A stretch of DNA of 64,000 bases from Acidobacteriota bacterium. GTDB lineage: Bacteria > Acidobacteriota > Vicinamibacteria > Vicinamibacterales > UBA2999. Of this stretch, positions 29,975-30,550 are shown piece after piece; the stretch's first letter is position 1, and every line of letters starts with the position of its first letter. Made by a program: the position numbers and the translations under genes. Under the pieces are notes generated by a model. The model was given only the letters and a program-made list of their open reading frames with translations. It was not told the origin of the DNA and ran no database searches. The DNA lies in assembly GCA_031364805.1 (NCBI GenBank), contig JANLWW010000032.1:30372-94371 (forward strand), read 5' to 3'.

Positions 29975-30002
29975 TAAAAAAGGGAGGCGACTGCGCCTCC
30001 CT
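29975..30002 (-). terminator. Intrinsic terminator of the microprotein unit
   Basis: AGGGAGGCG-CAGT-CGCCTCCCT followed by TTTTT on the minus strand. Confidence 0.8.
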
Positions 30003-30025
30003 CGATCTTCTGGCTGACGAAGCGA

Positions 30026-30079
30026 CTAGCGCTTCTTCGCCTTCTTCGCTGCCTTCTTCTTAGCTGCTTTCTTTGCCAT
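30026..30079 (-). CDS. 17-aa Lys/Ala microprotein MAKKAAKKKAAKKAKKR
   Basis: ATG..TAG, 18 codons; G-rich SD (GAAGGGGGGGA) 6 nt upstream; terminator downstream; paralog at 30267. Confidence 0.72.
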   Translation of the reverse strand: MAKKAAKKKAAKKAKKR

Positions 30080-30104
30080 TTGTAATCCCCCCCTTCAGGT
30101 TGGG

Positions 30105-30209
30105 TTATGCGTAAGAACCTAGCCGCTGCACGACTTGCCTCTGCCGCCTGGCACTCGGCTTGCCCATGCCGGCGTTCTTTCGCTTCGTTACGCGACGTGA
30201 GTTATTCAC
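30105..30209 (-). CDS. Possible 34-aa basic peptide MNNSRRVTKRKNAGMGKPSARRQRQVVQRLGSYA (or structured RNA spacer)
   Basis: GTG..TAA open frame between the two microproteins; no clear SD. Confidence 0.35.
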   Translation of the reverse strand: MNNSRRVTKRKNAGMGKPSARRQRQVVQRLGSYA

Positions 30210-30225
30210 GCGCGCGGTCTTGGTG

Positions 30226-30257
30226 AAAAGGGTGGGGCAGTTGGTGAGAACCGCCCC
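30226..30257 (-). terminator. Internal hairpin/weak terminator after the first microprotein
   Basis: GGGGCGGTT-CTCACC-AACTGCCCC then ACCCTTTT. Confidence 0.5.
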
Positions 30258-30266
30258 TGTAGCGGC

Positions 30267-30317
30267 CTAGCGCTTCTTGGCCTTCTTCTTCGCCGCCTTC
30301 TTTGCCTTCTTCGCCAT
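30267..30317 (-). CDS. 16-aa Lys/Ala microprotein MAKKAKKAAKKKAKKR
   Basis: ATG..TAG, 17 codons; AGGAG SD 6 nt upstream. Confidence 0.72.
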   Translation of the reverse strand: MAKKAKKAAKKKAKKR

Positions 30318-30422
30318 GGTTCTCTCCTGATGGGGGGTGACTCTTGCCTGATGGCGACCGCTGAATGTTTTTACGTGTTCACAATCAGTGGCCTGAGCCT
30401 TACTCCCTCATACCAGATGTAG

Positions 30423-30450
30423 ATTATGGATGAGAAATTCACCTTGTCAA
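30423..30450 (-). promoter_or_regulatory. Sigma70-like promoter for the microprotein unit
   Basis: TTGACA-N16-CATAAT in an AT-rich patch; second TTGACA about 23 nt upstream. Confidence 0.65.
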
Positions 30451-30550
30451 GCACAAAGCGTTTGTGATTGTCAAACAACCGCCCGATTGCCCCATCCGAT
30501 CACACCTTCAGATCACGTGTCGGATCGTGGCGCACAGATCTGTAGCGTGA

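Follow-up and report, generated by a model that had tools for sequence, protein, structure and literature searches.

Introduction

The tail of histone H1 is a polycationic, low-complexity DNA condenser that prefers Lys over Arg and is joined to a globular domain, and protamines are polycationic DNA condensers that are rich in Arg. In bacteria, the chlamydial proteins Hc1 and Hc2/HctB (PF07382) are dominated by Lys and Ala and built from repeats whose number sets their length, and an electrostatic role in nucleic-acid binding is presumed for them. Hc2 is described as a protein of 165–237 aa (PMC2848022). For Pseudomonas, the KPAA tail of AlgP is described as binding DNA and organising polyphosphate (polyP) granules (PMC9239181), and that of PhaF as binding RNA via its lysines (PMC12818456). 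According to the same descriptions, these tails of 150–200 aa sit on a folded N-terminal domain (NTD), with AlgP comprising 352 aa including an NTD of 124 aa (PMC9239181, PMC12818456). Here, a cassette of two unannotated micro-genes is reported from the minus strand of a 64,000-nucleotide stretch of DNA from an Acidobacteriota bacterium (assembly GCA_031364805.1, contig JANLWW010000032.1, positions 30,372 to 94,371), which is called the window in the following and to which all coordinates refer. Its two open reading frames (ORFs) encode Lys/Ala peptides of 16 and 17 residues and belong to a family found in the order Vicinamibacterales. This order (subdivision 6 of the Acidobacteriota) is among the commonest groups of soil and freshwater bacteria.

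The family shares with Hc1 and Hc2 the dominance of Lys and Ala, the repeat-dependent length and the presumed mode of binding. It differs from Hc2 in that its members mostly have 14–20 aa and are encoded as tandem paralogs with a dedicated conserved promoter and leader and with structured RNA; homology between the two is not demonstrable. Like the tails of AlgP and PhaF, the peptides consist of Lys and small residues and are predicted to be disordered, but those of the window contain no Pro, no tandem KPAA and no folded N-terminal domain and carry only about 10 charges. They start with MAKK and are tail-like throughout, and family-wide Pro accounts for 13 of 4791 residues. Compared with the H1 tail and protamines, which are much longer or Arg-rich, the family is bacterial, free-standing and 14–20 aa long.

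Two other groups of very short products are similar in outline. The tiny basic ribosomal proteins bTHX, bS22, bL37 and eL41, which are strongly expressed and have been overlooked by annotation, are uniform in length and sequence and contain both Arg and Lys. They are as short, as basic and as invisible to gene callers as the family described here, but the latter comprises 81 distinct peptides of 14–70 aa in one or two copies with almost no Arg. The attenuator leader peptides TrpL and HisL share with the cassette ORFs of 14–20 codons in which one amino acid predominates, a Shine-Dalgarno (SD) sequence ahead of the ORF and a terminator hairpin behind it. In contrast to them, the cassette has no regulated gene downstream, its peptide is under purifying selection and the whole unit has been inverted in place in four loci.

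Results

Two micro-genes with strong expression signals

Comparative sequence analysis shows the two tiny genes to be genuine and to be conserved across an order of Acidobacteria from soil and freshwater. A preliminary description made from the window's letters had proposed a minus-strand promoter, SD sequences, two ORFs, a hairpin and a terminator, and minus-strand reading, a consensus scan and folding placed each of them where it had been proposed. The cassette is composed of the following features:

30469..30474, minus strand: second copy of TTGACA within A/T-rich sequence, some 23 nt ahead of the -35 hexamer
30423..30450, minus strand: sigma-70-type promoter TTGACA-16-CATAAT, matching 11/12 consensus positions
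30318..30422, minus strand: 5' leader of ORF1, near-invariant in its first ~45 nt (30422-30378)
30328..30324, minus strand: SD1, AGGAG, 6 nt ahead of the ATG of ORF1
30267..30317, minus strand: ORF1, MAKKAKKAAKKKAKKR plus stop, 16 aa with 9 Lys and 1 Arg
30226..30257, minus strand: 9-bp GC hairpin (30257..30234) followed by ACCCUUUU, obtained by folding, weakly terminator-like and 3' of ORF1
30109..30183, minus strand: irregular hairpin of ~75 nt with four helices ahead of ORF2, apical motif UGCC-AGGC-GGCA at 30153-30142
30085..30096, minus strand: SD2, the extended G-rich Shine-Dalgarno sequence GAAGGGGGGGAT of ORF2
30026..30079, minus strand: ORF2, MAKKAAKKKAAKKAKKR plus stop, 17 aa with 9 Lys and 1 Arg
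29974..30003, minus strand: intrinsic terminator from scan and fold, with a stem at 30003..29980 (10 bp, 7 GC pairs) and a T-run

The terminator faces a convergent gene for a HEAT-repeat cyclophilin, which ends at 29949. The coding sequence (CDS) of ORF1 runs ATG GCG AAG AAG ... CGC TAG, and the choice of Ala and Lys codons in it differs from that in ORF2.

These signals exceed what is expected by chance. In the consensus scan, the promoter at 30450..30423 was the sole promoter-like match between 29700 and 30800 with 0.3 expected, and a relaxed pattern (TTGAC[AC]-N16-18-[TC]A[TA]AAT) occurs only four times genome-wide. The genome of 5,198,853 bp (64.7% GC) holds nine ORFs of 10–40 aa with at least 40% Lys, of which only ORF1 and ORF2 have both a Lys content above 55% and an SD. 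The motifs of the leader, of SD2 and of the intergenic region each occur once in the genome.

Upstream of the -35 hexamer, the T-run and TTGAC(A/T) are kept in most of the loci displayed and throughout the genus alignment, and this segment may serve as an UP-like or operator region. Further upstream, between the stop of the preceding gene and the promoter (30480-30545, minus strand), loci L001-L038 share the genus-conserved islands CTACAG, CCGACACG, TGAAGGTGTG and CGATCG, which may represent a second promoter or the terminator of the upstream gene. A perfect sigma-54-like site (TGGCAC-N5-TTGC, 30149-30163, plus strand) is located within the ORF2 hairpin, in antisense orientation to the cassette. 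It was rejected as a conserved promoter because its -12 TTGC half varies in other families and its TGGCAC half belongs to the apex of the hairpin.

Selection on the peptides

The 151 loci collected from Vicinamibacterales hold 266 ORFs that encode 81 distinct peptides. ORFs were called as ATG-GCN-A[AG][AG] with at least 30% Lys, so that the common MAK start arises partly by construction. Among the 4791 residues encoded, there are 2454 K, 1244 A, 391 G, 252 R, 117 T, 42 V, 13 P, 11 S and 1 C. Codons for Asp or Glu are absent from all 4791, even though one A-to-G substitution would suffice to convert AAG into GAG. An SD-like sequence precedes 265 of the 266 ORFs, and KKR forms the C-terminus of 245 of the 266 peptides. 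Of the 252 Arg residues, 246 are terminal and 6 internal.

The preliminary description had noted that the two window ORFs use different Ala and Lys codons for nearly the same peptide, and the codon comparison across loci bears this out. Twelve distinct CDS in 20 loci specify the peptide MAKKAKKAAKKKAKKR of ORF1, and 5 distinct CDS in 11 loci specify the peptide MAKKAAKKKAAKKAKKR of ORF2. Paralogs of equal length in 15 genomes differ by 80 synonymous and 17 non-synonymous codons, with 14 of the latter in one locus, and in 12 genomes both paralogs encode the same peptide and differ at 4–8 third positions only. The lack of Asp and Glu codons, the 12 CDS for one peptide and the purely synonymous divergence of paralogs show that the peptide is under selection; as read from these codons, the pattern is unambiguous even though the loci come from kin and are not independent.

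The ORFs span 14–70 aa, with 243 of the 266 in the range of 14–20 aa, and one promoter and leader serves 14-mers such as MAKKGGKKKGGKKR, 16- and 17-mers, 30–48-mers made up of (A/T)(A/T)KKK and a 70-mer that includes KKPAA. This 70-mer (L132) contains four KKPAA units and is the sole member of this kind. Ala, Gly and Thr exchange freely among the peptides, but Lys does not. Acidic and aromatic residues are absent and no residue is bulkier than Val. That one promoter and leader precede peptides of such different length (14–70 aa) argues for a disordered polycation whose function depends on its composition and not for a ribosomal protein with a fixed pocket.

Distribution and synteny

Conservation and synteny had been suggested as checks of the micro-genes, and both were found. 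The 501-bp cassette DNA was matched in 40 of 41 related genomes, the source genome being counted among them. All 24 congeners matched over the full length with 76–99% identity, and 15 of 16 genomes from other families of the order matched in part. The best-kept piece in these other families is the promoter with the first ~45 nt of the leader (80–86% nucleotide identity). A strict DNA pattern for M-A-K-K...K-K-R-stop, which passes over longer and KKK-ending variants known to exist, was found in 23 of 401 genomes of the phylum, all within Vicinamibacterales (23 of 37 genomes of the order), and in none of two sister-order genomes or the 362 from the rest of the phylum. Within 1.5 kb of the cyclophilin gene, neither a Lys-rich ORF nor the leader was present in three genomes of a cassette-less family of the order and two of the sister order.

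The leader pattern TTCTCANCCATAATCTACATNNNGTATG is present in at least 119 species genomes. They are labelled Vicinamibacterales, Vicinamibacteria or Acidobacteriota, save for a few oddly labelled metagenome-assembled genomes (MAGs). Seven loci (L042, L049, L091, L094, L102, L105 and L108) bear the titles 'uncultured cyanobacterium', 'Acidimicrobiia' or 'Bifidobacteriaceae' despite a Vicinamibacterales-specific leader and synteny; these MAGs are probably mislabelled or contaminated.

In all 151 loci, the cassette occupies the same place between the D-Ala-D-Ala ligase gene (Ddl), with or without a TPR protein gene, and the convergent HEAT-repeat cyclophilin gene, the latter lying downstream of the cassette in 139. 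An enolase-superfamily (MR/MLE) gene also belongs to the conserved neighbours. In four loci (L086, L099, L109 and L142), the cassette has been flipped in place as a complete unit, promoter and terminator included, relative to Ddl/TPR and HEAT-cyclophilin, which fits an autonomous unit. This inversion agrees with the stand-alone, unannotated micro-genes proposed from the window, as does the absence of the 20–45-aa homologs from a collection of 15 billion proteins (see below).

In 143 loci, 650 nt or more of sequence follow the leader; 114 of these loci contain two ORFs, 29 contain one and none lacks both. ORF1 has decayed in L026, L034 and L039 while the leader and ORF2 persist. A single-base frameshift or a lost start breaks one micro-ORF in L051 (ORF1), L077 (ORF2) and L105 (ORF1 region), which may reflect either genuine decay or errors at homopolymers in MAGs built from long reads.

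In the window, the longest ORF around the D-Ala-D-Ala ligase (31603-33228, minus strand) has ~150 aa N-terminal to its Pfam domains and shares ~100 nt with the TPR ORF. Probably, its start was simply called too far upstream and the extension is not real.

RNA elements of the cassette

Two features go beyond the preliminary description, namely a conserved structured RNA of 75 nt ahead of ORF2 and a 5' leader conserved across the order. On the evidence of covariation, the ~75-nt hairpin is a structured RNA. In 40 related sequences, 87.2% of the cells of the hairpin (30183..30109) were paired, a value reached by none of 500 shuffles, and 51 compensatory cells were counted against 20.6 ± 3.3 in shuffles (0/500); 11 of the 25 pairs were compensatory. 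Controls slid along the alignment gave 31–55% paired cells. The alignment was made with MAFFT, blind to structure, and the structure was derived from the same 40 sequences. The apical motif UGCC-AGGC-GGCA is found in 75 of the 151 loci, always 54–63 nt ahead of SD2.

The leader is conserved in a different manner. Alignment columns show its first ~45 nt after the -10 hexamer to be near-invariant order-wide. The proposed helices (GGUGG/CCACC, GCUCAG/CUGAGC and an inner helix) had 76.9% paired cells in 84 sequences compared with 75.8% in shuffles, and no covariation beyond shuffles was detected for them in this set. RNAalifold returned 4 pairs when all families were used, and a consistent three-stem fold of 16 pairs, one of them compensatory, with 22 sequences of the same family. 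The leader is thus conserved in its primary sequence, and its structure is unproven and weakly supported. A small upstream ORF whose ATG lies at position 12 of the leader was rejected as coding because its stop falls anywhere from 1 to 10 codons on, it has no SD and its variation does not fall on third positions.

SD2 is near-invariant across families. Its predicted duplex with the anti-SD has −18.2 kcal/mol compared with −9.8 kcal/mol for SD1, both calculated with a generic anti-SD motif, as the 3' region of the 16S rRNA was not found in the 193-contig assembly. In the minimum free energy (MFE) fold, the sequence CCCUUUUCA 3' of the ORF1 hairpin (30226-30234) pairs with UGAAGGGGG of SD2 (30086-30097). 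In read-through transcripts, this modelled pairing could hide the ribosome-binding site of ORF2.

The ORF1 hairpin is a weak terminator at best, since only four U follow its 9-bp stem. It was not called as a terminator by the consensus scan, and its counterpart in other families has a full T-run. The C-terminal codons AAG AAG CGN and the stop often lie in a small hairpin with the downstream sequence, such as GAAGCG/CGCUUC at ORF2 (30026-30045) and alike at other loci. A small hairpin over the last codons and the stop might help to account for the invariant C-terminal KKR.

Occurrence in RNA libraries

Part of the locus is present in 20 public runs from 17 studies. Twelve of these runs are recorded as RNA and hold 40–52% of the sampled words. 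Contigs from RNA libraries span positions 30051-30455 (X1), 30123-30479 (X4) and 30053-30381 (X7), with several pieces in X3, and so cover the leader, ORF1, the hairpin and the start of ORF2. They are compatible with co-transcription and with read-through of the weak ORF1 hairpin without proving it. Their lower ends at 30051-30075 are probably assembly breaks within the repeats of ORF2. The flanking genes had no contig cover in four RNA runs, which in itself is no evidence of differential expression.

A transcription start near 30416 had been predicted from the promoter. It was not confirmed, because the RNA-library contigs reach 30455-30479, which is 39–63 nt upstream of it. In two studies (X3 and X4), the contigs stop at 30478 and 30479, just downstream of the genus-conserved islands. 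These ends hint at a possible additional 5' end upstream of the predicted promoter, but a branching assembly graph where the conserved block ends could mimic one.

Comparison with databases and literature

As the window peptides with their 16 and 17 aa are under the 20-aa minimum of the profile scans, longer relatives were scanned in their place. Four homologs of 21–30 aa had no match in NCBIfam at E values up to 10. For the 70-aa relative, the sole Pfam match below E = 1 was HC2 (PF07382) with an E value of 0.015 and 15.8 bits. The 45-aa relative scored 6.8 bits against HC2, two further relatives had no match, and none of the longer relatives scanned matched a ribosomal Pfam family. In the ESM Atlas, the clusters nearest to the 70-mer were hypothetical proteins of 56–77 aa from Bacteroidota and Verrucomicrobiota (score 0.95–0.96). 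HC2 is carried by 21% of one of these clusters, which is a lead only.

An exact look-up of ten homologs of 20–45 aa found none in the 15-billion-protein collection, and a homolog search with the 45-aa relative gave 95 candidates of which none scored. Rfam 15 yielded only sub-threshold noise for 29700-30800 at E values up to 10, for instance CsrC with 15.9 bits compared with a gathering threshold of 61 bits. Literature searches on lysine-rich small proteins of Acidobacteria and on H1-like bacterial proteins turned up no description of the family, and nothing on it was found for the peptide strings or for small ORFs or metatranscriptomes of Vicinamibacter and Luteitalea. What is new is a putative Lys/Ala histone-like polycation in a detached, tandemly encoded form of 14–20 residues with private, presumably regulatory RNA.

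Discussion

The preferred reading is that the peptides are free, H1-tail-like polycations which neutralise and compact cellular polyanions, DNA in the first place and RNA or polyP as further or alternative targets. Its probability is put at about 0.45. A self-contained and strongly driven cassette would produce two free polycationic micro-proteins. With Ala at position 2, Met would be removed, and a Lys/Ala chain of ~15–16 residues with a charge of about +10 would result. Composition rather than fold would be what is selected: about half Lys, otherwise Ala, Gly and Thr, almost no internal Arg, a fixed MAKK start and a fixed KKR end. The peptides may then act as detached tails of the histone-H1/Hc2/AlgP type, that is, as abundant, multivalent counter-ions binding polyanions. 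The conserved leader and the covarying 75-nt hairpin may set peptide output or feed back on it, and one may speculate that feedback runs through the peptides' own binding to RNA. While gene reality, selection on the peptide, conservation across the order, strong signals and RNA structure can be read directly from the loci, translation, abundance, targets and regulation are what we infer from them.

A bolder version pictures a detached histone tail, a gene-encoded oligolysine of ~+10 that a dedicated promoter supplies in bulk and that acts in trans as a tunable, high-valence counter-ion which condenses the nucleoid and/or drives polyP-RNA-DNA coacervates, with its output set by two private RNA elements. 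It is tentative and, taken as a whole, doubtful. Within it, the peptide would possibly bind the hairpins of its own mRNA. The genome context offers some points of reference. Four HU/IHF-family genes (on C104, C174, C13 and C97) sit in open frames of 99–120 aa, and as the frames span no more than this, the encoded proteins have no Lys/Ala tail. Lys/Ala/Pro-rich terminal tails were observed on larger ORFs at C103:73528, C86:22792, C10:151987, C98:69714 and C178:30940. Spermine_synth-type domains have nine matches in the genome and Orn/Arg decarboxylases two. A role of the peptide as a polyamine substitute was considered and found no support, as genes of the polyamine-synthesis type are present.

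Several observations weigh against free H1-tail-like polycations. With these polyamine-synthesis-type genes, small polycations are not scarce in the cell. Lacking an anchoring domain, a 16-mer is unable to link structures in the way proposed for AlgP and PhaF, and simple charge explains neither the invariant MAKK and KKR ends nor the strict preference for Lys over Arg. The two conserved RNA elements suggest that selection acts partly on RNA. The likeness to HC2 is compositional and stays below the Pfam cut-off (15.8 vs 40 bits). One family of the order, in which none of seven genomes matches the strict peptide pattern, lives without the cassette. As the genomes behind the loci are related and mostly MAGs, the counts are not independent, and the RNA-library contigs carry no strand, level or ends and may include DNA carry-over.

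The preliminary description had left a nucleoid, a ribosomal and a polyP function side by side. The range of 14–70 aa favours its H1-tail- or protamine-like option and disfavours the ribosomal one. Micro-proteins associated with the ribosome or with RNA would either be seated in rRNA or bind mRNAs and modulate translation. This is an unlikely alternative, even though the peptides are tiny, extremely basic and overlooked by annotation, are preceded by a strong promoter and strong SDs as in translation components, and have a parallel in the Lys-rich KPAA region of PhaF, which is described as binding RNA and activating translation (PMC12818456). A fixed rRNA pocket is at odds with the variable length and the free exchange of Ala, Gly and Thr behind the same leader, with one or two copies per locus and with the cassette-less family. 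The near-pure Lys with almost no Arg and the four 21–30-aa homologs that are unmatched in NCBIfam point in the same direction. A stand-in for a missing small ribosomal protein was also considered and rejected: bS21, bL36 and bL34 were all found (3/3 tested), so that there is no obvious ribosomal vacancy. For partners of polyP granules or condensates, which would coacervate with polyP alone or together with DNA or RNA during starvation, the Lys/Ala/Pro-rich AlgP provides a model, since it is described as sitting on polyP granules and spacing them (PMC9239181), and the genome encodes PPK1 and the charge density of the peptides is very high. This function appears improbable, because no connection between the cassette and ppk or starvation control is seen, its promoter resembles the sigma-70 type, and the folded N-terminal domain and the 154-aa repeat region of AlgP are missing from the locus.

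The RNA itself could be the product, either as a regulatory or sponge RNA or as cis-acting, attenuator-like sensor ORFs whose peptide is irrelevant. The highly conserved 5' leader, the covarying hairpin before ORF2 and the three loci that keep the leader though ORF1 has decayed speak for this, as does the unusually long complementarity of SD2 to a generic anti-SD motif. It nevertheless has little probability in view of the strong selection on the peptide, with identical paralogs that differ by 4–8 synonymous changes and no Glu or Asp in 4791 purine-rich codons. Furthermore, no co-directional gene follows: in 139 of the 151 loci, what comes next is a convergent gene, and in four the cassette is inverted. 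Rfam gave no match. An exported cationic antimicrobial or signalling peptide would be short and strongly cationic, too, but can be considered very improbable: the peptides have no hydrophobic or aromatic residues and hence no amphipathicity, they have no signal peptide, and the conserved neighbours include no exporter, immunity or modification gene.

Free polycations of the H1-tail type remain the preferred reading, and the peptides can be synthesised, so that the case is directly testable. For proteomics and annotation, the family is a caution, as such peptides are degraded by trypsin and hidden by size cut-offs, and the composition filters of HMMER suppress their matches; an order-wide and apparently strongly expressed gene pair escapes gene callers and homology tools. 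The paired RNA elements represent two undescribed and probably cis-regulatory motifs. Provided that the peptides are made, they would rank among the shortest gene products conserved in bacteria, mere leader peptides apart, and would offer a natural minimal model of how Lys-rich disordered tails such as those of H1, Hc2, AlgP, PhaF and HU handle DNA, RNA and polyphosphate. If they indeed act as detached tails, they would be the shortest known free-standing chromatin-type protein, and tail-only polycations would work without a folded domain, beside HU proteins that have no tail in this genome.

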